A DNA stretch of 64,000 nt from an uncultured virus (IMG/VR IMGVR_UViG_3300030333_008421) (IMGVR_UViG_3300030333_008421), one strand, 5' to 3'. Positions 12,477 to 50,452 are shown, numbered from the stretch's first letter. The notes: generated by a model not told the origin, from the sequence alone. Made by a program: numbers and translations.

Positions 12477-13223
12477 TTAAACCTTCAAGGCCATATCCCA
12501 TAACAATAAATGCAATCGTGGACTAAAGTTGAAGTGATATTCTTTTGCTAACTCAGCAACATCTGCTGCTACATCAATATGTTCATCACGACTACCTGCA
12601 CATGGCATTAACCATACTCGGCCGGGTGGTATATCAAACTTATCAACATACTCAGTCATAATTTCGTCCATATCTCTTCGACTTTGCACCACGAACTTAA
12701 ATCCTGAATTATGCATTGAATGCCAGTCTAATACTTCTTCTATATATCGTTTGTTTTTAGGGTCACCGTTTGATCTTAGTTTAGGTGAAGTTGTAAATGT
12801 TGCTTCAAATTCAGTAACCCACCTATCTTCAGGATAAAGAGTTGCATTAGTTTCAAAATCTATACGAGGTACAAATCCCCATTCTTGTTTTAGATAATCA
12901 ATAAATTTAAGAAGCTTTGCTTGTTGAATAAGAGGCTCGCCACCGGTTAATTTAAGTATAGCTCCATTTCGTAAATGTTCTTTATATCCTTGATCGTTCA
13001 TCATACATTCGATCTCGGAAAAAGTCATTTTATTCTTTACACTCCATGAAATATAACTATCACAACCATATGGTGCATCTTCAGATTTAAATCCAATGCA
13101 TGTTAGATTACACATAGACAATCTCATAAAAACTGAAGGGTACCCAACGAATTCACCTTCACCTTCGATAGTGTAAAATACCTTATCGTCACTAAGAAAG
13201 ATAGTTTCTTGACCTAAACTCAT
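12477..13223 (-). CDS. queE: 7-carboxy-7-deazaguanine synthase (radical SAM)
   Basis: FYTIEGEG..G.PSVFMR, CNLTC-x11-CD, LTGGEP, ETN, SPK, FKFVV, SPRLH..LW. Confidence 0.92.
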   Translation of the reverse strand: MSLGQETIFLSDDKVFYTIEGEGEFVGYPSVFMRLSMCNLTCIGFKSEDAPYGCDSYISWSVKNKMTFSEIECMMNDQGYKEHLRNGAILKLTGGEPLIQQAKLLKFIDYLKQEWGFVPRIDFETNATLYPEDRWVTEFEATFTTSPKLRSNGDPKNKRYIEEVLDWHSMHNSGFKFVVQSRRDMDEIMTEYVDKFDIPPGRVWLMPCAGSRDEHIDVAADVAELAKEYHFNFSPRLHLLLWDMALKV

Positions 13224-13230
13224 ATCGGTT

Positions 13231-13258
13231 ATTATAACACATAAAAGATAGTTTTCAA
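13231..13258 (-). promoter_or_regulatory. Early promoter TTGAAA-N16-TATAAT, 7 nt before queE ATG
   Basis: Read on the reverse complement. Confidence 0.7.
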
Positions 13259-13275
13259 GATTAAATATTAAAAGT

Positions 13276-14013
13276 ATGGCAAGAAAAGCTAAGCGGTTAG
13301 CCGCGGTTTTCGAGTCGGAACAACTACAAGGGGAAGACCTTCTTGTAGATTGGGATTTAAACTTTAATGTAAAGAATAGATATGCCCTTACAGAGAACCA
13401 AAAGAACTTTGTAAGTACCCTATTAGAACAGGATACTAAAATAGTATTTGCAGATGGATTTGCTGGAACAGCAAAAACTTATTTAAGTGTTTTCGGAGCA
13501 CTAACATTATTAGCAGCAGGAAAATTAGAGCAAATTATTTACATTAGAAGTGTAGTAGAATCGGCCAATCAAAAAATAGGGCATTTACCGGGGCAATTAG
13601 ATGAAAAATTTCTTCCCTATTCATTACCTATGATGGATAAACTGGATGAATTAGTAACTAAAACTACTGCTAATTCTTTATTCAAAAAAGAATATATCAA
13701 ATGTTTACCAGTTAATTTTACAAGAGGATTAACTTTTAAAAATTCTATTGTAGTAATAGATGAAGCGCAAAATCTAACAAGACAAGAAATAACTACCTTA
13801 TTAACTAGGTTTGGTGAAGGGTCTAGATATGTTGTTGTTGGTGATTCTAATCAATCAGATATTAACGGTAAGTCAGGATTTTCTCCCATTATAAAAGCCT
13901 TTACAAATGATATTAGTAAAGGTAATGGAATACATTCCTTCTTTTTTGATAATACTGATATTGTAAGAAGTAAAATACTCAAACATATAGTTCACGTATT
14001 ATCAGATGTTTGA
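13276..14013 (+). CDS. phoH: PhoH-like ATPase
   Basis: GFAGTAKT, GHLPG, RGLTF, IDEAQN, LTRFG, GDSNQSD, DIVRS. Confidence 0.93.
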   Translation: MARKAKRLAAVFESEQLQGEDLLVDWDLNFNVKNRYALTENQKNFVSTLLEQDTKIVFADGFAGTAKTYLSVFGALTLLAAGKLEQIIYIRSVVESANQKIGHLPGQLDEKFLPYSLPMMDKLDELVTKTTANSLFKKEYIKCLPVNFTRGLTFKNSIVVIDEAQNLTRQEITTLLTRFGEGSRYVVVGDSNQSDINGKSGFSPIIKAFTNDISKGNGIHSFFFDNTDIVRSKILKHIVHVLSDV

Positions 14014-14170
14014 TCGATATCTAAAAGTTCTTTAATTGCATCCTCGGGCGAAACAAACTTCAAACTTTCGCTCGATGGTTTTTCATCCTTGTCGGGTTTA
14101 GACAGGTCAGCTAGCTTCGAAAAGACGTCGCTAGCTAACTTGTTTATTGTTGGGTCCTTTTCTTTATGAA

Positions 14171-14998
14171 TCATCCTCTTGGTGGTGCTAACGGGTCAGA
14201 AGGTTTATCTGAACCCCAACTAGTACCTGCAAAAGGATCACCCAAACCCTGGCTTTTAACGTTACCAACGCGAGCTCCTATAACAGCATTTTTATCACGT
14301 TTTGCACCAGGTAATTGTTGTTGTTGCGATTCGTATTCTGATGGAGTCATTTTTTGTTTTTCATGAAAATCTTTTAGTGCCTCAGGAATAGTACCATCTG
14401 TATCGTAATTGTCTAATTCAGCGCCTTCTTCTTCTTTATAAAAATCTCTTGGATTAGGTTGCGTTCCACAATTTTCAGCATCTCTAAATTTATCCCAGTC
14501 AACTCTCGAAGGGTCTATTGGTTTTTCAGTAAGAGACTTAACATTAACGGTTTTATGAACTTCTCGATTAGTATACGTTGCACTATTCTTTTCGTGTTCC
14601 CAAACCTCAACCTTTTCTACCCAACACCTGTCTTTTGTAGCAGCTTTAATAAATGAATCTGCAACATCGAACACAAACTCAGCTGTCTTTTCAATACCCA
14701 CACCAGGCATTACTCTTAAATCAATAACACCAAGACCATCAAGCACTTTAAATTTTTCTAAATGTGGGTCATCCTTATCAATACAAGTTGTATGGTCAAA
14801 TTGTTTTTGTAATTTTTCTTTTAACCCTTTAAGACTTCCAAAATCTACAACCCAATTATTATTATCTAATTCACTTGCACCAAACCAAATTTTAGATTGT
14901 AATCTATAACCATGTAAAAATCTGCAATGTGACTTTGCTCTCGGCTGTCTGAAAGCACAACTACCCAATTCAATTATTTTAGTACTGTTAAAGCTCAT
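14171..14998 (-). CDS. queD: 6-carboxytetrahydropterin synthase with a long acidic C-terminal extension
   Basis: SHCRFLHGY, WVVDFG.LK, FDHT, GIEKTAE, VWEHEKNSA. Confidence 0.88.
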   Translation of the reverse strand: MSFNSTKIIELGSCAFRQPRAKSHCRFLHGYRLQSKIWFGASELDNNNWVVDFGSLKGLKEKLQKQFDHTTCIDKDDPHLEKFKVLDGLGVIDLRVMPGVGIEKTAEFVFDVADSFIKAATKDRCWVEKVEVWEHEKNSATYTNREVHKTVNVKSLTEKPIDPSRVDWDKFRDAENCGTQPNPRDFYKEEEGAELDNYDTDGTIPEALKDFHEKQKMTPSEYESQQQQLPGAKRDKNAVIGARVGNVKSQGLGDPFAGTSWGSDKPSDPLAPPRG

Positions 14999-15004
14999 CT
15001 AGTA

Positions 15005-15032
15005 ATGATAGAATCAAAGCTTAAGTTATCAA
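15005..15032 (-). promoter_or_regulatory. Early promoter TTGATA-N16-TATCAT, 6 nt before queD ATG
   Basis: Read on the reverse complement. Confidence 0.7.
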
Positions 15033-15317
15033 CTACTTTTTTTTCTTCTTTTTAAATGGTCTAGGGCAAGGGGTACCTTTTACGTGAGTATGACCACACC
15101 TTCCACAATATGTAGCTTTCTTAGCTTCTAATAATGCTTCTATATCTATATATTTTGATGCAATTTCATCCATTTTTGATATTTTAGAAGCTTGCTTCTT
15201 CATCTGCTTTCTATACTTGGGGTCATTCTTCCATTTACTAGATACTTTACCCTTCTTTTTGGCTTTGTTAATATTATCCCAAAGTCCTTTTTCTAAGATT
15301 TTATCTGTTTTACGCAT
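15033..15317 (-). CDS. Small highly basic protein with C-terminal CxxCxHxH..C module
   Basis: [11 protein letters not shown] and [33 protein letters not shown]. Confidence 0.6.
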
Positions 15318-15761: not shown

Positions 15762-16835
15762 TTAATGCTTTTCGTAATTTATAATATCAAGAAATACAGT
15801 GTAAAAAGGTTTATCGGTTTGGCCTACAAAACATGGATCATCTTCTTTATCGTGTTGCCACTGATCAAAATAAAATAGGTTATATCCATGTCTTGCTGCT
15901 ATAATACTATAATAAGGTTCTTCTGTTACGGGTATAATATCGTGATTATCTGTAAACATATTATACAGTTGCATATACTCATCAAATATAAGATCTAAAG
16001 TTTCAAATTTACCTCCAAAAATAGTTGCTAAAGTCCAGAAAGGATAATTATCCCACCGGTCTTTATCTAACCCAACAATTTTATCTTTTTCAAGATAAAA
16101 CTTCATCCTCTCTTCATCAATTGGAAATTGTTTGCCTATATTATTCCACCCGTAAAGTTTTTTGAGACTACGGCTCATCCAGTGATTATTACTTACCCAA
16201 TCAAATTCTTGAATACGATCATTAGCAGTAAGACTAACAATATTAAACCAATCTTTATCTTCAAGAACTCGTTTTAATCCTTCGGTAATTTTAGGTGTAA
16301 AAATATTGTTTTTATTTTCAGGGTAAAAATGACTATCTGGATATCTATTTTCTATTTCACCCGATACATGGTAAACGTATTCGCACCCTCCCATAGACTC
16401 GGGTATTTTGCACCATTCGGTTACACCGGCGTCTATCCACACTACCCTGTCGCAGCCCCATTCATTATCTTTTGCATTTTGACACCATTTTAATTTCCAA
16501 TGGCATAAAATTTCGTTACGAGGGCAGAACATAAAATGCTTTTTTTCATATTCATTTCTGTACCATACAAATTTCTTTTTGGTTTCTAATAATTCGTAAG
16601 AGCGAGGCCATTCAAATAAATCTAACCCTATAACTTTATATTGTTTAAATTTTACCCTTTCAAGAATCTCAGTTAACAAATCAACCATCCACGGCCAACA
16701 ATAAAGGTGCATTGGCATATCCAATTTACTCAGATTTTTTAGTGACGTTTCATATAGTTCTTCATCGTTATCTTTTCCCCCTATAAGCCAATCAGATCTT
16801 CCTACATAAACACATGTAACTAAAATAGGTTTCAT
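15762..16835 (-). CDS. HtrL/YibB (WlaTC)-like glycosyltransferase
   Basis: N-terminal LVT, K..W...A...N....VWIDAG, FGG, TEE; paralogue of 35763-36770. Confidence 0.6.
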   Translation of the reverse strand: MKPILVTCVYVGRSDWLIGGKDNDEELYETSLKNLSKLDMPMHLYCWPWMVDLLTEILERVKFKQYKVIGLDLFEWPRSYELLETKKKFVWYRNEYEKKHFMFCPRNEILCHWKLKWCQNAKDNEWGCDRVVWIDAGVTEWCKIPESMGGCEYVYHVSGEIENRYPDSHFYPENKNNIFTPKITEGLKRVLEDKDWFNIVSLTANDRIQEFDWVSNNHWMSRSLKKLYGWNNIGKQFPIDEERMKFYLEKDKIVGLDKDRWDNYPFWTLATIFGGKFETLDLIFDEYMQLYNMFTDNHDIIPVTEEPYYSIIAARHGYNLFYFDQWQHDKEDDPCFVGQTDKPFYTVFLDIINYEKH

Positions 16836-17461
16836 TACATAAATTTATATCCCAAATCGGTAAAATCTCTATGGTATCTAGAATTAATGGCATCTATAGA
16901 GTTACTTGAAAGTTTATCAACCAAATCATTAGTATTGATAGACGAACTGTTAACTAACGGTAATCCCTTTGGTATATTATATAGATCGCACATATTATTA
17001 AAATCATTTTCAAGATTTTCAAATTTTATTACATGATCATAGTCTATTTCATTAAAATATTCAACCTGTGGTAAATAATGATCGCATATAAAATTATCAC
17101 AACAGAATTTTTTAAACCAGTTATGAAATTCCCCGTCATCAAAGTAGGATTTATGTTCTCTAAAAAAATATTCAGAAATACACCTTGTATATGGATTTCT
17201 AATTATAGTAAATTTTTTATACTTTTCGTATCTTTCAGGGTTATTTTCTTTTATTAATTTAGGAATAAAATGATGTGAAGCAAAGATGCAATTGTATGTA
17301 TGATAATTTAGTAAAAAATAATCAGAAGATAAATCATAAAAATACTCGCTTGTATCTACTTCTTCTTTTATATTATGTATATTAAATTTTTGTTCTATGC
17401 TCGATCCCCCCGTTTTTGGAATATGAACAAAAAGTAAATTATGTTCATGAATAAAAGGCAT
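16835..17461 (-). CDS. Sulfotransferase family 2
   Basis: FVHIPKTGGSSI (5'-PSB), FTIIRNPYTRCISEY (3'-PB), HYLPQ, IKFENL; TAAATA-N5-ATG. Confidence 0.85.
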   Translation of the reverse strand: MPFIHEHNLLFVHIPKTGGSSIEQKFNIHNIKEEVDTSEYFYDLSSDYFLLNYHTYNCIFASHHFIPKLIKENNPERYEKYKKFTIIRNPYTRCISEYFFREHKSYFDDGEFHNWFKKFCCDNFICDHYLPQVEYFNEIDYDHVIKFENLENDFNNMCDLYNIPKGLPLVNSSSINTNDLVDKLSSNSIDAINSRYHRDFTDLGYKFM

Positions 17462-17505: not shown

Positions 17506-17512
17506 TTAGTTG

Positions 17513-18556
17513 ATGTCCGATAAAAATAACAGTTACGAATGGTTAGGTGAGGATGATGAACTTACTGGAGAAAAAGACATTATTGCTCAAGAAATAATGG
17601 GCAATGAATTTAGTAAGAGTTATTATCCACCAATTCGAGTTTATGATAGAACGGTAAAAGCTGATAAAAAATATATTTCTTCTTTACCCGATCTTCAAAA
17701 TGGACCTTCTAGTTTAATTCAAGGTGCGGCAGTACCTATTCAACAAGTAGGTATTCATAATTTTAAATTACCTCTTAATTATAAAAAGAGAAACGGTAAA
17801 ACTATTGAGTTAGAAACAAGTGTTACCGGTAGTGTTAGTTTAGAAGCACATAAGAAAGGTATTAACATGTCTCGTATTATGAGAAGTTTTTATGATCATA
17901 AGGACGAAGTATTCAGTATTAGTAAGATTAAAGACGTGTTAGAAACATACAGAAAGAATTTAAAATGTTTTGACTCTCGCATCATGTTAAAGATATCTTA
18001 CCCTATTAAACAAAAAAGTTTACGTAGTGGTTTAGAAGGTTACCAATATTATGACGTAGTATTTGAAGGTGATCTTACTAAAGATGGGGAATTCAAAAAA
18101 TATATTCATTTTGATTTTGTTTATTCATCTGCATGTCCATGCAGTTTTGAATTAAGTGAACATGCTGAAAAATATCGTAATAGAGCAACTGTTCCGCATA
18201 GTCAAAGAAGTGTAGCTCGTGTTAGTGTTAAGTTCGATGAAATGCTATGGATCGAAGATCTTCAAGAGTTATGCTTAGAAGCTCTTCAAACTGAAACGCA
18301 AGTTATGGTAAAGAGAGAAGATGAACAAGCATTTGCAGAAAAGAATGGTGCTTATCTTAAGTTTGTAGAAGATGCAGTAAGGTTAATGTATGAAAAGCTT
18401 TCTAGCGAATCTCGTATTACAGACTTTAAGATTGTAGCTTCACATAATGAAAGTCTTCATAGTCATAATGCAGTATCGGTTATTGTAAAAGGTGTTGAAG
18501 GTGGCTTTACTGCAGGTGTACCTAGAGACGTATTTGAATCAACAGGTTTGAGATAA
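17513..18556 (+). CDS. folE2: GTP cyclohydrolase IB (Zn-independent)
   Basis: [56 protein letters not shown]. Confidence 0.95.
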
Positions 18557-22729: not shown

Positions 22730-23242
22730 GTGAAGCAAGACGATCTTAACATGAGAAAAATTCTTGAGTCAGGTGCATTAGCATTTAATTCAGGAGATGA
22801 ACCAGCTGGAGGTTACACTCAAGCTAATAGAGTACAGTTAAAGCCATATGATGATAACGATTCAGATGATTTACCTGGCGATACGGTTACTGTTGAAATC
22901 GATAATGAATTGTATGAACTTACACCAGATGAAGTTTCTTTAATAAAAATGATTACAAGTAAGAAACACGATAAAAGATTAGGTGTTGGTGATGAAGATG
23001 AAGAAAGTCGTGGTATATATAGTGTAATTGATACAGAATTAAAAAAAATTCAAGATTATGTTGCAGCAGGTAAAGCTCAAGGACAAGACTTTACTACGAG
23101 AGCAAAAGATTTTATTATGTCTGAAATAACACCATTAACTGCAAATTTATCGGAAACTGAATTAAATCATGTACATCATTATATTGATAAAACACTTGCT
23201 ATGTACACGGGTAGTAGAATTCAAAATCCAATGAGGAGTTAA
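22730..23242 (+). CDS. Acidic hypothetical late protein
   Basis: MKQDDLNMRKILE leader; late promoter. Confidence 0.55.
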   Translation: MKQDDLNMRKILESGALAFNSGDEPAGGYTQANRVQLKPYDDNDSDDLPGDTVTVEIDNELYELTPDEVSLIKMITSKKHDKRLGVGDEDEESRGIYSVIDTELKKIQDYVAAGKAQGQDFTTRAKDFIMSEITPLTANLSETELNHVHHYIDKTLAMYTGSRIQNPMRS

Positions 23243-24481: not shown

Positions 24482-24485
24482 TCTA

Positions 24486-25781: not shown

Positions 25782-25789
25782 ATAGGTAA

Positions 25790-31619: not shown

Positions 31620-31622
31620 CAA

Positions 31623-36770: not shown

Positions 36771-36795
36771 AGGTTTATATACTATCATATTTACT

Positions 36796-38612: not shown

Positions 38613-38621
38613 TTGTACTAG

Positions 38622-40457: not shown

Positions 40458-41681
40458 ATGTTTCAATCACCTTTACAGCAAAACAATCCATTCGGAGGGC
40501 ATAACCCTTTTGCAGGTAATTTCATTAATAAACAAAAAATTCAGATAGGTCAACCTGCCCCTGGTCCTGAAGGTACGCCACGTTTTATGAACTATGTAGC
40601 TGATTATGGTGGTTGTGGTTTTTGGCGTATTATATGGCCTGAATATTTGCTTAATGCAAGTATGAAGTGTATGGTTCATACATCCACTGTAATGACTATG
40701 GACCCTAATCACTATCAACGCGCAGTAGCCATAAAATTACAAAGACAAGCTTCACCAGATCAACTAAAGTTTGTAAGATACCTTAAGCAGATTTCAAGTC
40801 AAGTGGGGTTTAGGTTAATTTACGAAATTGATGATTTAGCTTTTAGAGAAGACATTCCAGATTACAACAAATACAAATTTGCATTTACGAGTGATGAAAT
40901 AAGAAACGGTATTCAAGAAATAATGGAACTGTGTGACGAAATGACCGTTACATGTAAGTTCATGAAAGATTATTACGAATCAAAAACTAATAGTCTACCC
41001 GTAACTGTTATACCCAACTATGTACCTAAATTTTGGATGGGTAATTTTTATAACCGTGAAAAGATAGAATTTGATTACGATAAGCATAAACGTAAACCTC
41101 GTGTAGTTTGGTCTGGTTCAGGTGCTCATATTGATGTAGATAATAGGATAAAAGGTAAAGATGATTTCTTTCACGTTAATGATGTTATAAGATCAACAGT
41201 TGACGATTTTCAGTGGGTATTTTTAGGTGCTATTTCACGCGACTTAACAGATTTAGTACAAAAAGGCAAAATTGAATTTCACCCATGGTGTGATTTATAT
41301 AATTACCCGGAAAAAATATACACACTAAATGCTAATATGATGGTAGCTCCTTTAAGAGATAATAATTTTAATAAATCTAAGAGTGACCTTAAACATCTTG
41401 AAGCAAGTTGTTTCGGTTTACCAGTTGCATGTCAAGATATTTGTACATATGAAAATGCACCCATTAAATTTAAAACCGGTGATGAAATGATTGATCAGAT
41501 TAAAACCGTTCTTAAAGATGAAAGAAGATTTATCAAAGAATCGGTAGCTGGTAGGAATTTTGCAGAATCAAGATTTTTAGAAAAAGAAGAAAATATTGGT
41601 AAATTTTTTGAAAATTATAATTACCCAGTGAATGATCCAAGGAGAAAATTTCTCAATAGTCTGCCAGAAAATAAAGCTTGA
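40458..41681 (+). CDS. GT-B (GT4-like) glycosyltransferase
   Basis: ADYGGCGFWR, YEIDD, VIPN, W.GSG.H, APL..N.FN.SKSDLK.LEA...G.P. Confidence 0.8.
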   Translation: MFQSPLQQNNPFGGHNPFAGNFINKQKIQIGQPAPGPEGTPRFMNYVADYGGCGFWRIIWPEYLLNASMKCMVHTSTVMTMDPNHYQRAVAIKLQRQASPDQLKFVRYLKQISSQVGFRLIYEIDDLAFREDIPDYNKYKFAFTSDEIRNGIQEIMELCDEMTVTCKFMKDYYESKTNSLPVTVIPNYVPKFWMGNFYNREKIEFDYDKHKRKPRVVWSGSGAHIDVDNRIKGKDDFFHVNDVIRSTVDDFQWVFLGAISRDLTDLVQKGKIEFHPWCDLYNYPEKIYTLNANMMVAPLRDNNFNKSKSDLKHLEASCFGLPVACQDICTYENAPIKFKTGDEMIDQIKTVLKDERRFIKESVAGRNFAESRFLEKEENIGKFFENYNYPVNDPRRKFLNSLPENKA

Positions 41682-41713: not shown

Positions 41714-44302
41714 ATGTATAGGAATGTTGTTTACGAGCCCTCACAAGAACAAATGCGACTGTTCACTTGGGATGAGGATGGAAATAGAATACAAGTAACG
41801 CAAAGTTACAACCCGTATCTTTATATTGAACCTAAAGATAGTAGGCATCAAACTGCAACTTCTATTTACAAGACACCTTTGCGTAAGGTGGTATTCAAAC
41901 GTGAATCTGAAAGAAGACAGTTTATTAAAAACAACAAAATAAAAAGGTTGTTTGAGCATTTACCAGTAAAGCAACAATTTTTATTAGATAATTTTTGGCA
42001 AGTAAATGAAACTGACGACTTTACGAAAAACCCAATCAAGATGCTTTTGTTAGATATTGAGACCTATTCACCTGATGGGTTTCCAAATATCGAAAATGCT
42101 AATCATGCGATTAATGTTATTACAGTTTACGATAATCTTGAAAAAAAGTTTTATACTTGGGGTACAAAAGAGTATAAAGGTAAAGGTAGAGACGATTTAG
42201 AATACGTTTATTGTGAAACTGAAAGGGTACTATTTGCAAAGTTCCTTGATTACCTTGAGAAAGATTACCCAGATATCTTAAGTGGATGGAACTCTGAGTT
42301 CTTCGATATTCCATATATTATAAAACGTTGTGAACGTATTATGGGTAGTGAAGAAATGAAGAGACTATCACCTGTAAACAATGTATATTATCGAAGCATT
42401 CAAGGTGCTTTTGGTAGGCAACAAATACGTTGGTATATTGAAGGTATAGCTTTGTTAGACTATTTAGATATATACAAAAAGTTCGCACCTTTAAGGGAAT
42501 CATATAAACTTGATGCAATTGGTGAACTTGAGTTAGGTGAACGAAAGGTGGAGTTTCAAGGTATGGATTTGGCAACCTTATCTGACGTTGATTGGGATAA
42601 GTTTATTGACTACAACATTCAGGACGTAAACCTACTCGTAAGATTAGAAGAAAAGCTACAATATTTGGGTTTGATACGAATGTTAGCTTATGTAGGGTGT
42701 GTTACCTTTGACGCAGCTATGGGTGCGTTATCGGTGATTAATGGGGCTTTTTGTATTCGTGCAAGACACAAACAACAAGTCATACCTACTTTTATACGAG
42801 GGGAAGACACGGGTAAGAATCCAGGTGCATATGTAGGTGAACCCCAACAAGGGTTCCAAAACTACATTCTATCTTTTGATGCTAACAGTCTATATCCTAA
42901 TGTGATGATATCGCTCAACTTATCACCTGAAACTAAGATTGGTAAAATACTAGAAAAAACTGATGATCAGGTTGTTATGGAGATGGTAAGTGGTAAAGTC
43001 AAAGAGTTTACTATTCCAACTTTTGTTAAGATGATAAAGGATTACAAACTTACAGTATCAAAAGCTAATATTGTATTCCATCAACAAGAAAAGGGTATCA
43101 TTCCTGAAATTGTAGATTATTATTATCAAAAACGCAAAGTGTTCAAAGATGAGTATGTTGACTTGAAAAAGAAACATGCAAGTATGAAGAAAAGCGATCC
43201 AGATTATGAAAAGATCGGGGTAGATTCACAACGAGCCGGGACCAAACAGTTAACGGTGAAAATTTTGATTAACTCAATATATGGATATTTCGGTAACAAA
43301 AATGCACCTATTGGGGATGACGATATTGCATCATCAGTTACATTAAGTGGTCAAGCAGTAATTAAACAAAGTAACGTAATTATTAGAGACTTTATCAAAC
43401 TTAAAACTGGTTTGAGTGATGAAGACTTAAAGAAGAAGGATCCTATCATTTATAATGACACAGATTCCTCTTATGCATCAATTGAGTTACTGATTAACCA
43501 TTTAGGGTTAAACTTCAAAAATGAAAAGGGTGAAGTTCATGATGATATATACAAGCTTGAAGACGAATTGGTAGCTTATTTGAATAAGCAAATAATGATT
43601 TGGGGTAAGAAGGTATTCAATAGTAAAGATTGTAGATTTGTATTCAAGCGTGAGTGTATTGGCGAAGTTGGTGTATTCTTACAGAAGAAACGTTATGTCA
43701 TGAACATACTTGATGACGAAGGTGCTAAGATAAACAAAACGAAGTATACTGGGGTAGAGGTAGTTAGAACTACGTTACCGAACTCATTAAAACCTCATAT
43801 GAAAAATGTAATTGAGATAATGCTCAGTACTCAAGACTACCAGCAAACCAATGAAGCAATGAAAGTGGTTTATGATAAATTCAAAGATTTGCCTATAACT
43901 GATATTGCAAGTGTAATGGGGTTAAAAGGGTATGAAAAATATGCAGGTCAATGTGATGGTATGAAGACAGTAAAGGGTATGCCAATACATGCAAAAGCAA
44001 GCTATTTTTACAATCAATTGGTAAAATTGCATAAACTTGATAAAAAATATGAACTGATTGGTTCGGGGGATAAGGTTAGATTTTTCTATGTTAAGAAACC
44101 AAACAAATATAATGTTGATTCTATTGCATATAAGTACGAATGGCCTGAAGAATTTGATGCATTTTTCAAACCAGATTACGATAAAATTTATGAAAAGTTA
44201 ATTTTTGCTCCTATCGAACGATTTTATAAAGCAGTTAACTGGAAATGTTATTTACCAAACCAGGCAGTGCAGTGTGATTTATTTAGCTTATTATCTGAAT
44301 AG
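41714..44302 (+). CDS. gp43: Family B DNA polymerase
   Basis: DIET, GWN..FFD, YN..D exonuclease; SFDANSLYP, K...NSIYG, YNDTDS, KKRY; TTGATA-N16-TATAAT-N8-ATG. Confidence 0.98.
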   Translation: MYRNVVYEPSQEQMRLFTWDEDGNRIQVTQSYNPYLYIEPKDSRHQTATSIYKTPLRKVVFKRESERRQFIKNNKIKRLFEHLPVKQQFLLDNFWQVNETDDFTKNPIKMLLLDIETYSPDGFPNIENANHAINVITVYDNLEKKFYTWGTKEYKGKGRDDLEYVYCETERVLFAKFLDYLEKDYPDILSGWNSEFFDIPYIIKRCERIMGSEEMKRLSPVNNVYYRSIQGAFGRQQIRWYIEGIALLDYLDIYKKFAPLRESYKLDAIGELELGERKVEFQGMDLATLSDVDWDKFIDYNIQDVNLLVRLEEKLQYLGLIRMLAYVGCVTFDAAMGALSVINGAFCIRARHKQQVIPTFIRGEDTGKNPGAYVGEPQQGFQNYILSFDANSLYPNVMISLNLSPETKIGKILEKTDDQVVMEMVSGKVKEFTIPTFVKMIKDYKLTVSKANIVFHQQEKGIIPEIVDYYYQKRKVFKDEYVDLKKKHASMKKSDPDYEKIGVDSQRAGTKQLTVKILINSIYGYFGNKNAPIGDDDIASSVTLSGQAVIKQSNVIIRDFIKLKTGLSDEDLKKKDPIIYNDTDSSYASIELLINHLGLNFKNEKGEVHDDIYKLEDELVAYLNKQIMIWGKKVFNSKDCRFVFKRECIGEVGVFLQKKRYVMNILDDEGAKINKTKYTGVEVVRTTLPNSLKPHMKNVIEIMLSTQDYQQTNEAMKVVYDKFKDLPITDIASVMGLKGYEKYAGQCDGMKTVKGMPIHAKASYFYNQLVKLHKLDKKYELIGSGDKVRFFYVKKPNKYNVDSIAYKYEWPEEFDAFFKPDYDKIYEKLIFAPIERFYKAVNWKCYLPNQAVQCDLFSLLSE

Positions 44303-44987: not shown

Positions 44988-46073
44988 ATGGCTAAAGATA
45001 AGATCGCAGATGTTTTTTCAAGTTTAGATAAACTTAACCCTGAAGCTACATACTTAAGTGAAAACGCACTATCTAATGTCGATACCTGGTATGATACAGG
45101 TTGTTATGCATTGAATGCTATCATAGGTGGTAGGTGTGTTGGTGGTGGTGTACCGAAAGGTAGATTAATTGGTTTTGCTGGACCATCTCAATCAGGTAAG
45201 ACTTATATTATTAATAAAATTTTAGGTAACGCACAGAAACAAGGTATCCACCCAGTTATTTTTGACACCGAGTTTGCTGTTGATAAAGAAAGTACAGAAG
45301 GCGTTGGTCTTGATGCCACTAAAACCAAATATGTACCCGTATATACAGTAGAACAATGTCGTAACCAAGTAGTAGCTTTGCTTGATAGTATTGTTGAAAA
45401 AGGGTTACAAGGTAGGTTTATTATTTCTATCGACTCTTTAGGTAACTTAGCATCACAAAAAGAGGTAGATGATGCTGCTAAAGATAAGAGTGCAATGGAT
45501 ATGGGTCTTAGAGCTAAACAGTTAAAGTCTATGATGAGAATTTTAACTTATAAGGCTGGGTTGTCAGGAACCACTATTTTGTTTAGTAATCATACCTATG
45601 ACGATCCTTCTGCGTTAATGCCTACGTTAGTTAAGACCGCTGCTGGTGGTAGTGGACCTCAGTATATGGCAAGTGTGTTGGTACAACTTGCTAATAAAAA
45701 GGAACGTCAAGATGCATCAAACGATAATGATGAAATGTTACCTGAATCACGAAACTATTCGGGTAGCACACTTCGGTTTTTGACAACCAAAAATCGTTTT
45801 GTACCTCCTTATTTGCAAGCAGAGATTTACCTTAACTTTAAAACCGGTTTAGACAAGTATAGTGGCTTGAAAGACATGGCTGTTAATCATGGGATATTAA
45901 CGCAGACCGGTAGTACATTTCAAATTGGTATCGAGAGTGAGGACGGAAAACGTAAGGTGGGAGATAAAATAGGTTATTATAAAAATTGGAGAAAAGATGT
46001 AGATCTTTGGGAAAATTTTATTATTCCTGAATTAGATAAAAAGTTGAAATTAGCATATAGCTACGGTAAATAA
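44988..46073 (+). CDS. uvsX: RecA-like recombinase
   Basis: DTG...LN, GPSQSGKT, FDTE, IDSLGNL, DMG.RAK.LKS, NHTY, GG.G..Y, KNRF; TTGATT-N16-TATAAT-N6-ATG. Confidence 0.95.
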   Translation: MAKDKIADVFSSLDKLNPEATYLSENALSNVDTWYDTGCYALNAIIGGRCVGGGVPKGRLIGFAGPSQSGKTYIINKILGNAQKQGIHPVIFDTEFAVDKESTEGVGLDATKTKYVPVYTVEQCRNQVVALLDSIVEKGLQGRFIISIDSLGNLASQKEVDDAAKDKSAMDMGLRAKQLKSMMRILTYKAGLSGTTILFSNHTYDDPSALMPTLVKTAAGGSGPQYMASVLVQLANKKERQDASNDNDEMLPESRNYSGSTLRFLTTKNRFVPPYLQAEIYLNFKTGLDKYSGLKDMAVNHGILTQTGSTFQIGIESEDGKRKVGDKIGYYKNWRKDVDLWENFIIPELDKKLKLAYSYGK

Positions 46074-46077
46074 CATC

Positions 46078-47682
46078 ATGGCAAATATTGCTTTTTACGG
46101 TTCGCACAATGGTGCTATCGCCCTTGAAGATAACGGGGAATATTATGTAATTGAACTTGAACGTTTTTTTAATATTAAAAATATTGGGTTAGCTCAATAT
46201 AAGCCGTTGCGTTTTAGAGAAGAAGCCGTATACGCAGTATTAGAGTATATTGAAAAAGAACTTGGTTATGTGCCACCCTTCGAAAATCTAATTCATATCA
46301 ATACGGAATGTGTACATGACGATATAACATATAGTTATAAAGATTTCATTCCTGCAAAAACTGTTTTAGAAGGGTGGCATCACCATGCACATGCAAGTGG
46401 TTCATTTTATCAATCTAATTTTAATGAAGCTATTATTTTTAGTTTTGACGGTGGTGGTAATGACGGATTTTTTAATATTTTTACAGCTAATAGAAAAGAC
46501 GGGGTAAAATATTTGGATAAAACAAACCCTGCAGAAAGACATGATTATGATTATGACTTTGGTTTTCCTTATATGTGTTTTGCACATTATTGCCCCGATA
46601 TTAAACAAGAATGGATTTCAGATGGTAATCTTGTTTATAGTGGGAAAATTATGGGGTTGTGTGGGTTCGGTAAAGTTAGACACGAATGGTTAAACGCATT
46701 TAAAGAGTTCTATTATTCAAAACCTGATGGTGAAGATTATGTTGAAAAACTTAATAACATTATAGGTAGAAAATGTAATTTGGTATTCGATGAAAATAAC
46801 AGATTAGAAAAAGAAGTTAGCTGGGATGTAGCAGCTACATCTCAACAGGCTTTTGAAGATGTATTTTTTGAAGTTGCAATGCCGTATATTGACAAATATA
46901 AAGATCTGCCAATTATTATTACCGGTGGTTGCGGTCTTAATATTCTACTTGCAACTAAAATTAAAGAGAAATTTCCTAATCGACCTAGCTTTGTAGCACC
47001 CAATACAAATGACTGTGGTATTGCGTTAGGTTTGCTAGCAGGTTTTAATAAACCCAAAGAACCTATTGATATTACATATGGTGGTACGGAACTAATGGAT
47101 AAAAATTGTTACCCGGCATGGATCGAAAGTAACGTTGCTAAACCTGTTAACTTTGAAGACATAGTAAACTATCTATGTGAAGGAAAAATATTTGGAGTTG
47201 CAAGAGGTAGGTGTGAACATGGTCCTAGAGCTCTAGGAAACAGGTCTATTATTTGTAACCCGGCTTTTCCTGAGATGAAAGATATATTGAATCATAAAGT
47301 TAAACACCGGGAGTGGTATAGGCCATTTGCCCCGGTAGTTAGACTTGAAGATGTTTCGAAATATTTTGAATGGGAAGGCGAAACAAGACATATGCTTTAT
47401 TGCCCAAGGGTACGTAAAGAATGGCAAAAGGAACTAAGCTCTATTACTCATGTAGACGGGACTGCAAGAGTACAAACCATTACAAGAGAACAGAATGAAT
47501 GGCTTTATGATCTTCTTACCGTATTTGAAGCTAAAGCAGGTCATGGGGTATTGTTAAATACATCGTTTAATATTGCAGGTAAACCTATTCTTAATACTAT
47601 AGCTGATGCAATGAAAGTGCTTGAAACTTCGCAGATGGATTTTATAATCATCGAAGATTTTTACTATGGAAAATACTGGTAA
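46078..47682 (+). CDS. O-carbamoyltransferase (NodU/CmcH/TobZ family)
   Basis: HHHAHA, DGGG, GKIMGL, GGCGLN, ND.GIALG, E.GPRALGNRSI, VKHREWYRPFAP, HVDGTARVQT, LLNTSFN; TAAATA-N5-ATG. Confidence 0.93.
   Translation: MANIAFYGSHNGAIALEDNGEYYVIELERFFNIKNIGLAQYKPLRFREEAVYAVLEYIEKELGYVPPFENLIHINTECVHDDITYSYKDFIPAKTVLEGWHHHAHASGSFYQSNFNEAIIFSFDGGGNDGFFNIFTANRKDGVKYLDKTNPAERHDYDYDFGFPYMCFAHYCPDIKQEWISDGNLVYSGKIMGLCGFGKVRHEWLNAFKEFYYSKPDGEDYVEKLNNIIGRKCNLVFDENNRLEKEVSWDVAATSQQAFEDVFFEVAMPYIDKYKDLPIIITGGCGLNILLATKIKEKFPNRPSFVAPNTNDCGIALGLLAGFNKPKEPIDITYGGTELMDKNCYPAWIESNVAKPVNFEDIVNYLCEGKIFGVARGRCEHGPRALGNRSIICNPAFPEMKDILNHKVKHREWYRPFAPVVRLEDVSKYFEWEGETRHMLYCPRVRKEWQKELSSITHVDGTARVQTITREQNEWLYDLLTVFEAKAGHGVLLNTSFNIAGKPILNTIADAMKVLETSQMDFIIIEDFYYGKYW
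47621..47648 (+). promoter_or_regulatory. Early promoter TTGAAA-N16-TATAAT inside the carbamoyltransferase 3' end, upstream of queC
   Basis: Same geometry as other early promoters; 17 nt before queC ATG. Confidence 0.55.
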
Positions 47683-48496
47683 TATAGAAGAAGCACCTCC
47701 ACCACAACGTAAGAGTGGGGTAATGATATTTAGCGGTGGTATGGATAGTGCCGCTATGCTTAGATTAGCACAATTTAGCGTTAATGATCTTTATTGTTTG
47801 ACTTTTGATTATGGTCAAAGACATAAAAGGGAAATAGAATGTGCGAAGACACAGATTCAACATGCTAAACTTTTATCTTTTAATCATTCATTTGAGGATT
47901 CATATATCGAACATGTTGTTATAGATATAACTAATCTTATCGAAATATTTGGTCGTAATAATTCTATAACTAATTTAGATATTCGAAACCCAGATGTTAC
48001 AAAAATGGTTGGAGAAGCTCAACCAGCAAGTTACGTACCTTTTAGGAACCAAATATTTTTATCGTTAGCATGTGCTTATGCTGAAACGGTAAACGCTAAT
48101 TATATATATCACGGTGCTACAAAAGTGGATAGTTTAGCAGGTTACTGGGACGCAAGTCAAGAATTTAAAGACGCATTTCAACATTTAATTCAATTGAATA
48201 GAAAATATGAAATGGAGATACAATGTCCATTATTAGAAATGGATAAAAAAGCTATTGTCGAATACGGCTATAGTAATTCAATTTCCTTTAAAGATACATA
48301 CACATGTTATAGTGGTGAAGATTTATGTGATGCAACCACACCAAGTAGTTCTTTAAGACTTAAAGGGTTCGCTGATGCAGGTTATATTGACCCGTTACCA
48401 TATAAACAAGACTTAACTGAGTTTTGGGAAAAACATAATTGCAAACCATACCATGATGAAGTATTCTTAAATACAGAAGGAACTAGAGGACCATAA
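47666..48496 (+). CDS. queC: 7-cyano-7-deazaguanine synthase with degenerate Zn motif
   Basis: FSGGMDS, FDYGQRH..E, YVPFRN, Y.D, PL....K, TYTCY; CGxCxSC replaced by DATTPSS. Confidence 0.9.
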   Translation: MENTGNIEEAPPPQRKSGVMIFSGGMDSAAMLRLAQFSVNDLYCLTFDYGQRHKREIECAKTQIQHAKLLSFNHSFEDSYIEHVVIDITNLIEIFGRNNSITNLDIRNPDVTKMVGEAQPASYVPFRNQIFLSLACAYAETVNANYIYHGATKVDSLAGYWDASQEFKDAFQHLIQLNRKYEMEIQCPLLEMDKKAIVEYGYSNSISFKDTYTCYSGEDLCDATTPSSSLRLKGFADAGYIDPLPYKQDLTEFWEKHNCKPYHDEVFLNTEGTRGP

Positions 48497-49209
48497 TGAG
48501 AACATTTACAGAAGAAGAATTATCAAAATTAGGTTTTCAGGGAAATATATACCCTGATCCTAATGCTTTTAGATCGCATAGACCATTTTTAAAACACTGT
48601 GTAGATTTATTATACGAGAAAAAAGGTAAACTTAATATTTTAGAAGTGGGTATCGGTGACGGTAGTTCTGAATATTTTTCCGAAATTACTAAAGAAGATA
48701 AAGCTAATGTGTGGGGTATTGAATTTTATCCTGCATTTTGGGAAGAGTATGAAGAAAAAAGAAAGGAACTAGTAAACGATAATTATCAAATGTCTCTTGA
48801 ATATGATTCGCAAGGTCCTTGGGTTTGGGGGACGCCTTTATTTGATAAAGTTGATAGATTCTATGATATTATTTTTATAGATTCCGGTAGTTACGAAAAT
48901 AGATGGAACTGGGTTAAGTATGCTTCTAAAGGTCATTCAGATATTTTTATGTTGCATGACAGTGAACACTGGCATAGACAGAAGAAATGGGCTTTCGACT
49001 ATATTAAAGAAAACTGGAAATATGTTTATGATAGTTGGCCTAAAGTAAACCCCGGTACTGTATTTGGTGCTAATTTTGACCTTGAGTGTAACTTAGCTTT
49101 TGAAAAGATACATGATGATTTAGCTGTTGATCCTTCAAACCCGCACCCTCAAGTTGGGGAATTGGATCCAGCAACTATGAATATGCCTATACAGGAATGG
49201 GCTGAATAA
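48496..49209 (+). CDS. Class I SAM-dependent methyltransferase-like
   Basis: ILEVGIGDGSS, YDIIFIDS, MLHDSE. Confidence 0.7.
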   Translation: MRTFTEEELSKLGFQGNIYPDPNAFRSHRPFLKHCVDLLYEKKGKLNILEVGIGDGSSEYFSEITKEDKANVWGIEFYPAFWEEYEEKRKELVNDNYQMSLEYDSQGPWVWGTPLFDKVDRFYDIIFIDSGSYENRWNWVKYASKGHSDIFMLHDSEHWHRQKKWAFDYIKENWKYVYDSWPKVNPGTVFGANFDLECNLAFEKIHDDLAVDPSNPHPQVGELDPATMNMPIQEWAE

Positions 49210-49212
49210 AAA

Positions 49213-49770
49213 TTAGTAATCTTCTAATTCATCAGCAACTTCAACTTCAGGGTCATCTTTGTCGTATTCAATATGACCCTCAAGTTCACCCAATTTATCA
49301 GGGTCGACATCAGGCTCAGGTTGCTCACCTTCAAATACTTCATCTAATATACCATTTAGAATCATTTGTTCTACAACTTTCTTTGCGAAAGCTTTATCAA
49401 CATATTCTGAAGCAAAATTAATAATATCATTTGCATCTTCAGGGCTGTTTTCTACGTATCTAATGATATCTTTTTCGACGCCTTTAAGTAAAGTGTCGTA
49501 TGCTTTTTCTGCTGGTTTAAATTTCCTACCTTTTAATTTAACTTTACCTTGAGAAGCTTTTTTATATCTTGTTGCTCTGCTTCTTGCTCCAGCACCACCA
49601 CGGATACCTTTTATTCTCATCATCATTTCATAATATGACTCTTTTCGTTCTTCTCCTGTATCAGGATCTATTACAGTCTTACGTTCTCTTTCCGTATATT
49701 TCTTTTTACGGCCTTCTTCTACGGTTTCTCTGTAAGATTCGAATAAAAATTGGTTATCCTTATCTTTCAT
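49213..49770 (-). CDS. Hypothetical late protein, basic N-half and acidic C-half
   Basis: MKDKDNQFLFESYRETVEE leader; TAAATA-N7-ATG. Confidence 0.55.
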   Translation of the reverse strand: MKDKDNQFLFESYRETVEEGRKKKYTERERKTVIDPDTGEERKESYYEMMMRIKGIRGGAGARSRATRYKKASQGKVKLKGRKFKPAEKAYDTLLKGVEKDIIRYVENSPEDANDIINFASEYVDKAFAKKVVEQMILNGILDEVFEGEQPEPDVDPDKLGELEGHIEYDKDDPEVEVADELEDY

Positions 49771-49807
49771 ATTGAATTATTTATTAGATTTGCTATAATA
49801 TAAACAA

Positions 49808-50452
49808 ATGTGTGCAATATTCGGTTCAACTGAAAGAAGTAAGTTTATTAGCTTATATGAACTTAACAAAGACCGTGGTGGTTACGCAACTACGTTTTCA
49901 GGTATTAAAAATGATACGATTACTACATTCAAACGCAAGATGTTTGATATTGATAATCTTTATCTAGAAGATTGGGATTATTATTTGGGTCATCACCAAG
50001 CTCCTACTAGTTCAGTAAGAAAGTATTCTGAGAAAACGTCGCACCCGTTTAATTATGGCAGATGGCATGTAGCTCATAATGGGGTACTTATGAATCATAA
50101 AGAAGTAACAGAGGCTAGTGATACCAGAGAAATAGATACGTCGTATATTCCTGCATTTATGGAGGAACTAGATTTAAGTCCTTTAGGTTTGAGTGATAAA
50201 GAACTATTGGAAGAGACATTTAGTGCATTTAAAGGAACGCATACTTGTTGGGTATGGGATGATAAGAATAGTAAAATATACTTAACTAAAAATGGTAGCA
50301 CGTTGTTTATGGATGGTGAAAATTTTTCATCAGTAGAGTTTGAAGGTAGTAAAAGCTTACTAGATGGTTATGTATATAGTCACCATAAAGGAAAAGGGTT
50401 TATAGAGTTAGTTCAATTTACAAATAGCAATCCTTTTGCTGTATTCAGTTGA
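49808..50452 (+). CDS. Class II (Ntn) glutamine amidotransferase
   Basis: M-CAIFG N-terminal Cys, RG, GH.QAPT, HPF, AHNGVL.N, DT; TTGAAT-N16-TATAAT-N8-ATG. Confidence 0.88.
   Translation: MCAIFGSTERSKFISLYELNKDRGGYATTFSGIKNDTITTFKRKMFDIDNLYLEDWDYYLGHHQAPTSSVRKYSEKTSHPFNYGRWHVAHNGVLMNHKEVTEASDTREIDTSYIPAFMEELDLSPLGLSDKELLEETFSAFKGTHTCWVWDDKNSKIYLTKNGSTLFMDGENFSSVEFEGSKSLLDGYVYSHHKGKGFIELVQFTNSNPFAVFS

Follow-up and report, generated by a model that had tools for sequence, protein, structure and literature searches.

The 64,000-nucleotide stretch of DNA analyzed here (the window) belongs to an uncultured marine phage of a deeply divergent T4-like lineage, with a T4-like backbone and a gp43 that is only ~31% identical to that of any cultured phage, and represents ~30% of a genome estimated at ~210 kb from the CheckV completeness values of related fragments. 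Gene calling and profile searches located queE, a queD-like gene, folE2 and queC at the positions proposed in a preliminary description of the sequence, together with the other features listed here:

5950..6702, minus strand: AAA_28 kinase-like gene (PF13521, E 2e-10)
6718..7065, minus strand: MazG-like NTP pyrophosphohydrolase (phrog_18716 and phrog_801)
12477..13223, minus strand: QueE-like radical-SAM 7-carboxy-7-deazaguanine synthase, 248 aa (PHROG phrog_2076, "QueE-like radical SAM domain", E 4e-43)
13276..14013, plus strand: PhoH-like ATPase encoded in the queE-queD interval, not itself part of the pathway (PF02562, E 3e-53)
14171..14998, minus strand: QueD-like T-fold enzyme of the Cx3HGY class, 275 aa (PF01242, E 8e-18)
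17510..18556, plus strand: GTP cyclohydrolase IB (FolE2), 348 aa (PF02649, E 9e-74)
46078..47682, plus strand: NodU/CmcH-type carbamoyltransferase (PF16861, E 3e-61; PF02543; phrog_1601, E 1e-119)
47666..48496, plus strand: QueC-family ATP-dependent CDG-activating enzyme, YWD type, 276 aa (PF06508, E 3e-48)
48496..49209, plus strand: ORF of 237 aa lying downstream of queC and ahead of the Ntn gene
49808..50452, plus strand: stand-alone Ntn (class II) glutamine-amidotransferase-like protein, 214 aa (phrog_12378, E 4e-12)

The queD gene is linked to queE, queC and a GTP cyclohydrolase gene. In 80 related loci a QueE homologue adjoins QueD in 76, the PhoH-like ATPase is a fixed neighbor that accompanies QueD and QueE in 72, and FolE or FolE2 lies nearby in 68. 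The QueE-like protein itself scores slightly below the cut-off of Pfam Fer4_12. Upstream of QueC, the carbamoyltransferase is found in 23 of the 80 loci, and in the window its 3' end overlaps the start of queC by 17 nt; a role for it in the pathway would be conjectural. The 237-aa ORF that follows queC gave zero matches in Pfam and PHROG searches and was seen in just 12 of these loci. The AAA_28 kinase shares 26-30% identity with the gene immediately 3' of DpdA3 in seven IMG/VR loci, and it is possible, on a weak link, that this kinase and the MazG-like gene are nucleotide-handling accessories.

The QueD-like protein belongs to the PTPS family of T-fold enzymes (PF01242, 65 bits against a 22.4-bit cut-off). 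MAFFT alignment with E. coli QueD and HMMER alignment with PDB 4ntm and 7v0f gave the equivalences F16 = EcHis16, C25 = EcCys27, H29 = EcHis31 and Y31 = EcHis33, confirming that two of the three zinc histidines of E. coli QueD are replaced by F and Y, as had been proposed. The motif reads C-R-F-L-H-G-Y in place of Cx3HGH, with only the first of the two motif histidines present, and the third, N-terminal zinc histidine is the Phe at position 16; the catalytic residues C25, D68-H69, E134 and E136, as well as H29, are all there. The motif, including its Tyr, is invariant in the best 120 of 120 relatives (61-100% identity), and among the best 150 representatives at 50% identity all 137 motif-bearing sequences read Cx3HGY, with F at the first-His position in 116 and H in 10, and with the Asp-His dyad kept in 132. 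The core of the protein (residues 1-145) was modeled confidently by AF2, its best fold matches being 3jyg, QueD2 (7v0f) and E. coli QueD (Foldseek E 1e-8, prob 1.00 for the last of these), and is followed by a long, poorly ordered tail that ends in a conserved F-x-G-T-S-W-G peptide. The same F/Y type was detected in the soil phages Rhizobium RHph_N17 and Achromobacter Motura, in Microcystis phage Me-ZS1 from fresh water, in Stenotrophomonas phage Moby from wastewater and in the Baltic phages phiSM and immuto_2-6A. Judged from its sequences, F/Y-type QueD is an old, very large class. An identity as QueD2, the low-zinc paralogue defined by a Cx4HGH motif (PMC9894224), was rejected, since the window's motif lacks the one-residue insertion, having Cx3 spacing and a final Y. 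A literature search brought up no assays of Cx3HGY-class QueDs, nor of any QueC from the Cys-less groups described below.

QueC was aligned to PDB 2pg3 and 3bl5 and to E. coli QueC, taking cluster 1 of PF06508 in Libby et al. 2026 (PMC13329287) as the canonical reference. The first zinc Cys is kept (C214, in TCY), whereas the positions of EcC197, C200 and C203 are occupied by D, T and S, which bears out the earlier reading of the CGxCxSC segment and leaves the first Cys alone of the C(x)8CxxCxxC zinc motif. One column ahead of EcC197 lies C221, at a position that is variable in relatives (C, A or S). In the best 120 of 120 relatives (45-100% identity) the last three zinc positions are D/S, T/S and S. 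A further change, missed by the preliminary description, affects the canonical YPDC motif, which reads YWDA here; at this site Y and D are kept and P is replaced by W across 120/120 relatives, with G, A, T or S in place of C. On the other hand, QueC keeps SGGMDS, YGQRHKRE, VPFRN, Y160, K194 and Y215, and the canonical elements SGGxDS, YxQxHxxE, VPxRN, K165 and Y189 are each present here and in 120/120 relatives. The same full conservation was found for the residues described as essential by Libby et al. 2026 (Y35, R99, Y131 and Y189; PMC13329287) and for Q37, H39, E42, N100 and D133. The AF2 model of the protein has a pLDDT of 81 and a pTM of 0.82. Cys-less QueCs are also encoded by immuto_2-6A and RHph_N17. 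Because the altered motifs of both QueD and QueC are invariant in 120/120 relatives, the changes are due neither to decay nor to chance.

The Ntn protein begins with M-C-A-I-F-G, and its C2, R23-G24, H-x-Q-A-P-T and H-N-G elements are invariant in 20/20 aligned relatives; Gln takes the place of the H-x-R-x-x-T Arg in this protein, which scores below the Pfam cut-offs for GATase_6 (25.9 bits vs 27) and GATase_7 (21.6 vs 25). Its family, phrog_12378, is that of KVP40.0125, which adjoins the QueC of phage KVP40. An Ntn gene lies near QueC in 75 of the 80 related loci, in the order gp43 - UvsX - QueC - Ntn - gp41, and the two genes, separated by 1.3 kb in the window, are adjacent in most relatives. 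As they are two separate genes, identity with the one-polypeptide fused Gat-QueC was rejected. The YWDA site of QueC together with the conserved Ntn gene points to a two-protein system, probably fed by glutamine, in which the Ntn protein would be the nitrogen-supplying partner.

Neither tblastn (E >4), nor the DpdA3 profile (best E 0.58), nor PHROG searches (nil) detected a DpdA of any type in the 64-kb window, and QueF and DpdN were likewise absent from it. Both complete relatives, G002 and G003, encode DpdA3 (E 9e-57 and 2e-63; 42-50% identical to immuto DpdA3) along with QueF, and by analogy with them the likely purpose of the pathway is DNA modification. The DNA of phiSM carries dPreQ1/mdPreQ1 (PMC10516641), and the same paper, in its discussion, lists immuto_2-6A with those genomes that DpdA3 modifies completely, the base being fdPreQ1. 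In such cultured phages with modified DNA, the host could supply intermediates.

We consider it probable that the window encodes a pathway from GTP to a 7-deazaguanine, in which the loss of zinc ligands is a fixed trait of phage enzyme subfamilies, and whose product is used in DNA through DpdA3. FolE2 would produce dihydroneopterin triphosphate, which the Cx3HGY-class QueD would convert to CPH4 and QueE to CDG; YWD-type QueC and the separate Ntn amidotransferase would then amidate and dehydrate CDG to preQ0 or a close derivative, with glutamine-derived ammonia most likely provided by the Ntn protein. As in the complete relatives, a DpdA3 transglycosylase encoded outside the window would insert the base into phage DNA, where it would shield the DNA from restriction. 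What the sequences show directly is which genes are present, the state of their motifs, how far these and the gene order are conserved, and which genes the relatives carry; from this we infer what the enzymes do, that glutamine is needed, which base results and that it is used in DNA.

A further proposal, which we put forward tentatively, is that the Cx3HGY QueD and the Cys-less QueC are zinc-independent and that Ntn and QueC together constitute a glutamine-dependent preQ0 synthase of two subunits, a type so far undescribed. QueD may then employ iron or manganese held by His29, Tyr31 and His69 of the neighboring subunit, or may be metal-free, and QueC may fold without a structural zinc. If so, the FolE2-bearing sub-lineage would need no zinc at any step from GTP to preQ0.

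The preliminary description had also allowed for enzymes with altered chemistry, for which QueC offers some support in its YWDA site, lying on the substrate side with W in 120/120 relatives, and in its conserved stand-alone Ntn partner. Under this reading the pathway would not stop at preQ0: QueC and Ntn would release ADG or, in the manner of fused Gat-QueC, make the archaeosine base G+, and QueD might use a different metal, for instance iron, with Tyr as a ligand. QueC matches the Gat-QueC PHROG over its QueC portion (positions 140-363 of 418), and the Gat-QueC of phage 9g acts with DpdA to yield dG+ (PMC6884629). As for QueD, the paralogue QueD2 turns over ~100-fold faster with Fe(II) and holds its zinc by the HGH pair and His68 of the neighboring subunit, not by the N-terminal His (PMC9894224), and QueD keeps H29 and H69, the equivalents of QueD2 zinc-site residues. 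However, QueF, which needs preQ0, is present in the complete relatives that carry the same QueC and Ntn pair, and every residue essential for the conversion of CDG to preQ0 is retained in QueC; we regard altered chemistry as a doubtful alternative to the preQ0 pathway.

The identification of FolE2 in place of FolE holds (249 bits for PF02649, against a 25-bit cut-off). After an N-terminal extension of ~60 aa, the protein aligns over 250 residues with the solved FolE2 structures 2r5r, 3d2o and 8g6c; its CPCS, HSQRS and ESLHSH blocks, which we take to contain the residues binding metal, correspond to the CPCS, H(N/S)QRS and ES-H-H blocks conserved in the alignment. As a correction to the preliminary description, FolE2 is itself a metalloenzyme and still requires a metal. 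More than 100 clusters share >80% identity with this FolE2, and the phage type is abundant in marine data. Together with QueD and QueC, the swap gives this sub-lineage three enzymes of non-canonical type.

In this phage all three normally zinc-using enzymes are non-canonical, which fits the idea of a single, coherent zinc-sparing path to preQ0; scarcity of zinc, whether in the ocean water where the phage replicates or inside starved hosts, would then have been the selective force. Bacteria are known to have FolE2 and QueD2 as low-zinc paralogues (PMC9894224), and QueD2 (7v0f) is the best solved sequence match of the window's QueD, which, with the marine abundance of phage-type FolE2, speaks for such a route. 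In 63/80 of the related loci, however, the F/Y QueD has FolE close by, against only 5/80 with FolE2, and both complete relatives encode a canonical FolE with the C-x-H-H and second-Cys motifs. As the F/Y QueD and Cys-less QueC usually occur with canonical FolE, the three changes did not arise together, and the coherent low-zinc route is left unsupported; gene-content data already suggest gains of these traits at separate nodes. Moreover, the two variants are also found in the soil, freshwater, wastewater and Baltic phages, FolE2 has kept its need for a metal, and the zinc motifs of primase (CPIC...CHNC) and gp46 (CPTC) are retained, as the preliminary description correctly noted. We therefore find a single zinc-sparing route unlikely, although zinc economy is possible as a contributing pressure. 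The losses in QueD and QueC, apparently independent of each other and of the FolE to FolE2 swap, are better read as old traits fixed in large subfamilies of phage enzymes that evolve under purifying selection than as a co-ordinated low-zinc adaptation; of the three changes only the swap is specific to this sub-lineage.

Still less probable is a role of the pathway in supplying queuosine to host or phage tRNA, or in producing a free 7-deazapurine metabolite, in place of DNA modification. DpdA3 and QueF are missing not only from the window but also from all five closer-relative fragments, which are 11-38% complete. On the other hand, the window covers less than a third of the estimated genome, DpdA3 sits 20-100 kb from queD in relatives and is present in four of five long relatives as well as in both complete ones, and the pathway genes are located among DNA replication genes. 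That QueD and QueC are relics without activity, as the missing canonical metal ligands might suggest, is extremely improbable given their intact reading frames, the invariance of the replacement residues and of all other catalytic residues in 120/120 relatives even at 45-70% identity, the synteny kept across 80 loci and the confident structure models for the QueD core and QueC.

Among characterized phages, phiSM and immuto_2-6A follow the same logic of GTP cyclohydrolase, QueD, QueE and QueC (Cui, Hutinet et al., NAR 2023, PMC10516641) and share the Cx3HGY QueD class with the window phage, immuto_2-6A also sharing a Cys-less QueC. The window differs from them in encoding FolE2 instead of FolE and a YWD-type QueC with a separate Ntn amidotransferase, and in itself containing no DpdA3, QueF or DpdN. 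Vibrio phages KVP40 (KVP40.0124 / KVP40.0125) and 2.275.O, likewise T4-like or large phages, possess a YWD-type QueC and an adjoining stand-alone, PF00310-type Ntn protein of the same phrog_12378, but their QueCs are only ~30% identical to that of the window, keep all four zinc Cys and show Q at the H of YxQxHxxE, which the window QueC retains. The fused Gat-QueC of Enterobacteria phage 9g, also found in Providencia phage PSTCR7, combines an Ntn amidotransferase with QueC, as here, and has in common with the window's Ntn protein the M-C-G/A-I-F-G nucleophile and the H-N-G block; in contrast to the two genes of the window, it is a single protein that keeps YPD and four Cys, is accompanied by a canonical HGH QueD and leads to dG+ (PMC6884629).

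Outside phages, the window FolE2 belongs to the same family as the bacterial FolE2 of the Zur regulon; no sign of Zur-type regulation was seen in the phage. The A. baumannii QueD2 (7v0f), the second-best solved fold match of the window's QueD, resembles it in having a C-terminal extension, but QueD2 has a Cx4HGH motif with both histidines and an invariant Cys18 (PMC9894224), whereas the phage enzyme has Cx3HGY and a Phe at the N-terminal His position. A motif identical to that of the window's QueD defines the CxxxHGY cluster of IPR007115, labeled "PTPS-II-like" in the AGeNNT paper (PMC5445326, 2017), which reports FolE in the genomic neighborhood of nodes 5 and 56 of this cluster and gives for it no function, metal analysis or link to phage 7-deazaguanine. 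The CxxxHGY class is now placed in queE/queC/folE contexts, including those of two phages with published modified DNA.

The pathway encoded in the window is a variant of the known phage 7-deazaguanine pathway, made up of FolE2, a QueD of the Cx3HGY class and a Cys-less, YWD-type QueC (without the last three Cys of C(x)8CxxCxxC and with YWDA for YPDC), plus a separate class II glutamine-amidotransferase-like protein (Ntn). These genes lie in DNA of about 32% G+C, together with T4-type replication genes recognized from gene calls and PHROG.

Replication and 7-deazaguanine genes of the window (position, strand where noted, product, basis)
12477-13223 (-), QueE (PHROG)
14171-14998 (-), QueD-like protein (Pfam)
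17510-18556 (+), FolE2 (Pfam, 249 bits)
36796-40436, gp46/gp47 (PHROG)
41714-44302, gp43 polymerase (PHROG)
44988-46073, UvsX (PHROG)
47666-48496 (+), QueC (Pfam)
49808-50452 (+), Ntn amidotransferase-like gene (Pfam/PHROG search)
51591-52922, gp41 helicase (PHROG)
Within the window, gp55 and primase (PHROG)

No cultured phage has a gp43 polymerase more than about 31% identical to that of the window, the top matches being cyanomyophages, and the nearest IMG/VR record, the sole match of a single-protein scan, is a near-identical 29-kb fragment without a TGT match. Interspersed among the replication genes are unusually many glycosyltransferases, sulfotransferase-like genes and nucleotide-sugar epimerases and a cytidylyltransferase-like gene (1-6000, 15762-17461, 23239-25781, 31131-33153, 35763-36815, 37845-38612, 40458-41681, 50483-51559 and 58612-60617).

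Textbook QueD carries Cx3HGH and a catalytic zinc, and textbook QueC a zinc site of four Cys that is said to be needed for function. Alignment of the window QueD with E. coli QueD (MAFFT) and with PDB 4ntm and 7v0f (HMMER) equated F16 with EcHis16, C25 with EcCys27, H29 with EcHis31 and Y31 with EcHis33, so that Phe and Tyr stand at two of the three zinc histidines; the ligands and catalytic Cys of the E. coli enzyme are those set out in the portion of PMC9894224 available to us. A homology search gave 1841 proteins at E <= 1e-5, and the best 120 (61-100% identity) all kept C-A-F-R-Q ... H-C-x3-H-G-Y. An exhaustive search of 50%-identity representatives yielded 1355 matches at E <= 1e-3; among the best 150, the Cx3HG motif was present in 137, always with Tyr last, and the other 13, several of which start inside the domain, had no motif by pattern search. 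The first-His position was Phe in 116 of these 137 and His in 10, with another letter or no assignment by pattern in 11, and the Asp-His dyad was found in 132. The AF2 model shows a T-fold core, mostly at pLDDT >=90, whose top fold matches are 3jyg, QueD2 (7v0f) and E. coli QueD. We also rejected DpdL, a QueD paralogue marked by LxxxHRHxF, since the window protein has the catalytic Cys. The C-terminal tail (14171-14560, residues ~147-275), of a kind common in QueD-like proteins of the clade, is variable, of low complexity and modeled with low AF2 confidence; in many clade members its last residues form a conserved peptide, V-G ... G-x-x-N/D-P/L-F-x-G-T-S/T-W-G/S, that could serve as a docking site for a partner.

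In QueC, alignments with PDB 2pg3, 3bl5 and E. coli QueC showed that C(x)8CxxCxxC retains its first Cys alone, with Asp, Thr and Ser at the remaining three positions; C221 falls in the column just ahead of EcC197 and varies among relatives. The homologue set comprised 1158 proteins at E <= 1e-5, and in the best 120 EcC188 was always Cys, EcC203 always Ser, EcC197 Asp in 119 and Ser in one, and EcC200 Thr in 50 and Ser in 70. YPDC is replaced by YWDA in the window, a change overlooked in the preliminary description, and P132 is Trp in 120/120 of the same relatives. All 120 also keep Y35, Q37, H39, E42, R99, N100, Y131, D133, K165 and Y189, of which Y35, R99, Y131 and Y189 are essential in E. 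coli QueC according to the accessible text of Libby et al. 2026 (PMC13329287). Replacement thus affects the zinc motif and the Pro and Cys of YPDC but leaves the catalytic core intact; the AF2 model reached pLDDT 81 and pTM 0.82. The QueC* of Campylobacter phage CP220 was dismissed as a model of the Cys-less state, having kept its four Cys and PDC. The preliminary description was thus borne out on the motifs of both enzymes, and also in holding that Cys is not lost generally, the CxxC motifs of primase and gp46 being retained. Judged by these alignments, the zinc-ligand replacements in QueD and QueC are conserved variants and not decay.

Could QueD still bind metal? In the available part of PMC9894224, the catalytic zinc of A. 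baumannii QueD2 is bound by both His of HGH together with His68 from a neighboring protomer, the N-terminal His being no ligand, and turnover is about 100-fold higher with Fe(II). The window QueD retains H29 and H69, equivalents of QueD2 metal ligands, and Y31 could act as ligand of a harder metal. No universally conserved replacement ligand was found in the alignment of the Cx3HGY class, where C14, H135 and H24 were checked: C14 is not conserved, H135 is Asn in phiSM, and H24, which precedes the catalytic Cys, is His in 124/137 representatives. A CxxxHGY cluster has been recorded once, tagged 'PTPS-II-like', without functional study (PMC5445326), and our literature search turned up no assay for any Cx3HGY QueD or Cys-less QueC.

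The preliminary description had read these traits as a coherent zinc-sparing preQ0 route suited to low-zinc water. Its identification of the cyclohydrolase as FolE2 stands, with 249 bits, the blocks common to solved FolE2 structures retained and no FolE found in the window. The route itself is not supported, since the same QueD usually occurs with canonical FolE. At least 596 IMG/VR relatives of QueD were confirmed, and in the best 80 loci, examined up to 10 kb on each side, canonical FolE lay near QueD in 63 and FolE2 in five (identities of 99, 97, 86, 57 and a weak 29%); 12 had neither within the stretch covered and none had both. The complete genomes of two relatives, G002 (229.7 kb) and G003 (184.5 kb), encode F/Y QueD, Cys-less YWD QueC, Ntn, QueE, QueF, DpdA3 (a 7-deazaguanine DNA transglycosylase subfamily) and canonical FolE, the last retaining the C-x-H-H and second-Cys blocks, which we take from E. 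coli FolE to be zinc ligands. FolE, not FolE2, is likewise carried by a contig whose UvsX and gp43 share 90% and 91% identity with those of the window (loci L019 and L127). This distribution argues that the QueD and QueC states are older than the FolE2 swap and independent of it, and the swap itself is, on these comparisons, confined to the sub-lineage of the window. Phage-type FolE2 is common nonetheless, more than 100 clusters sharing over 80% identity with that of the window. Five FolE2 proteins 64-85% identical to the phage enzyme (P0445, P0458, P0464, P0465 and P0506) are labeled at NCBI as from MAGs of Coxiellaceae, Pirellulaceae, Rhodopirellula, Planctomycetaceae and Lentisphaeria; finding near-identical FolE2s in bins so far apart suggests that these MAGs took in phage contigs.

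The low-zinc-water reading also fits poorly with the sources of phages carrying F/Y QueD, which include soil, agricultural land, wastewater and the Baltic.

Phages with F/Y QueD and their sources
Rhizobium phage RHph_N17, agricultural land
Achromobacter phage Motura, soil
Microcystis phage Me-ZS1, Microcystis host (record names no source)
Stenotrophomonas phage Moby, wastewater
Cellulophaga phage phiSM, Baltic
Flavobacterium phages immuto_3-5A and immuto_2-6A (proteins identical), Baltic

Unlike the window, 9g-type phages (PSTCR7) and Bacillus phage BSTP12 have a canonical HGH QueD. The QueC of immuto_2-6A and RHph_N17 is Cys-less like that of the window but keeps YPDC, whereas those of KVP40 and Vibrio phage 2.275.O are YWD-type but have all four Cys. 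From these motif states we infer at least two separate losses of the zinc site, one in QueCs with YPDC and one in those with YWD. The fallback of the preliminary description, enzymes with altered chemistry, finds partial support for QueC, given YWDA and a conserved Ntn partner.

This partner was found in 75 of the best 80 loci among 329 IMG/VR relatives of QueC, within the stretch covered, alongside UvsX (74), gp41 (70) and gp43 (55), in the order gp43 - UvsX - (carbamoyltransferase) - QueC - Ntn - (epimerase) - gp41. Four of the five loci without Ntn stop less than 1 kb past QueC, and L081 gave no match in 8 kb downstream. Most of 57 distinct Ntn copies start with M-C-A/G-I-F/Y-G, and 20 aligned sequences all share C2, R-G, H-x-Q-A-P-T, H-N-G and D110. 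The protein belongs to phrog_12378, the family of KVP40.0125, which directly follows QueC in KVP40; Vibrio phage 2.275.O has the same pair. The consulted sections of PMC6884629 and PMC10516641 describe the fused Gat-QueC alone, and the word 'split' does not occur in PMC6884629. Conservation of Ntn beside YWD-type QueC points to a glutamine-fed form of the last step, in which Ntn would supply glutamine-derived ammonia to QueC; no mention of such an Ntn-partnered step was found in the literature as far as it was accessible. A complex prediction for QueC and Ntn (score 0.00, mark 0.32) speaks neither for nor against binding. The likely product of the pair is preQ0, because relatives with it also encode QueF.

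A NodU/CmcH-type carbamoyltransferase gene (46078-47682), present upstream of QueC in 23 of the same 80 loci, overlaps the start of queC by 17 nt, which may couple their translation; one idea this raises is that a base or sugar might be carbamoylated. Between queC and the Ntn gene, a 237-aa ORF (48496-49209) without a Pfam or PHROG match has a G-x-G-x-G-like stretch resembling a SAM-methyltransferase motif and occurs in just 12 of these 80 loci.

As to the purpose of the pathway, DpdA3 (phrog_19058) was detected in four of five long relatives, both complete ones included (E 6e-55 to 2e-63), Pfam TGT (PF01702) detecting it in none of the five. No DpdA was found in the window by tblastn with immuto DpdA3 and RHph_N17 DpdA or by PHROGs, nor DpdA3 by a profile of 63 sequences against the six-frame translation; the 64-kb window also gave no QueF, and five closer-relative fragments (11-38% complete) no DpdA3. 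Among the best 80 of 417 IMG/VR relatives, no DpdA3-bearing contig belongs to the sub-lineage of the window, since the best match to any window protein is 63% identical. DpdA3 lies about 23 kb from queE in G003, and by this synteny would fall past the left end of the window. DNA modification is therefore the best-supported use of the pathway, still by inference from relatives for this phage. Complete guanine replacement is a trait of the DpdA3 subfamily in the available text of PMC10516641, which reports dPreQ1/mdPreQ1 in phiSM DNA and, in its discussion, counts immuto_2-6A among genomes fully modified by DpdA3, with fdPreQ1 as the base.

Large phage families lack the zinc ligands of QueD and QueC, and among their members are enzymes from two cultured phages whose 7-deazaguanine DNA has been published. 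Provided that these enzymes work, either the metal need at both steps is less strict than has been believed, or other residues substitute. Motif rules for annotation are affected as well, as the window QueD and QueC each fail a family-defining motif. On the side of phage biology the outcome is more ordinary: a very abundant uncultured marine T4-like lineage joins the phages probably replacing guanine in DNA. No paper tying pelagimyophage/HTVC008M to queuosine was found among the best-ranked literature matches.

In G003, DpdA3, a GNAT acetyltransferase, an AAA_28 kinase and QueF form an operon in that order (23088-25921, equal to 3088-5921 of locus L097), and the adjoining GNAT hints at an acylated preQ1 base, which is not among the modifications named in the parts of the literature examined. 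Consecutive genes for an AAA_28 kinase-like protein, a MazG-like pyrophosphohydrolase and thymidylate synthase (phrog_85) lie at 5950-7690 (-) of the window, the kinase sharing 26-30% identity with the gene that immediately follows DpdA3 in seven IMG/VR loci. A run of 10 N at 31004-31013, within ORF 30721-31134, marks an assembly gap or masked stretch, and a GIY-YIG-like homing-endonuclease ORF (30039-30449 (-); phrog_447, phrog_7363) lies amid unknown genes. The window also encodes an Fe/Mn superoxide dismutase at 8916-9551 (-) (PF02777, E 2e-31; PF00081, E 1e-18).
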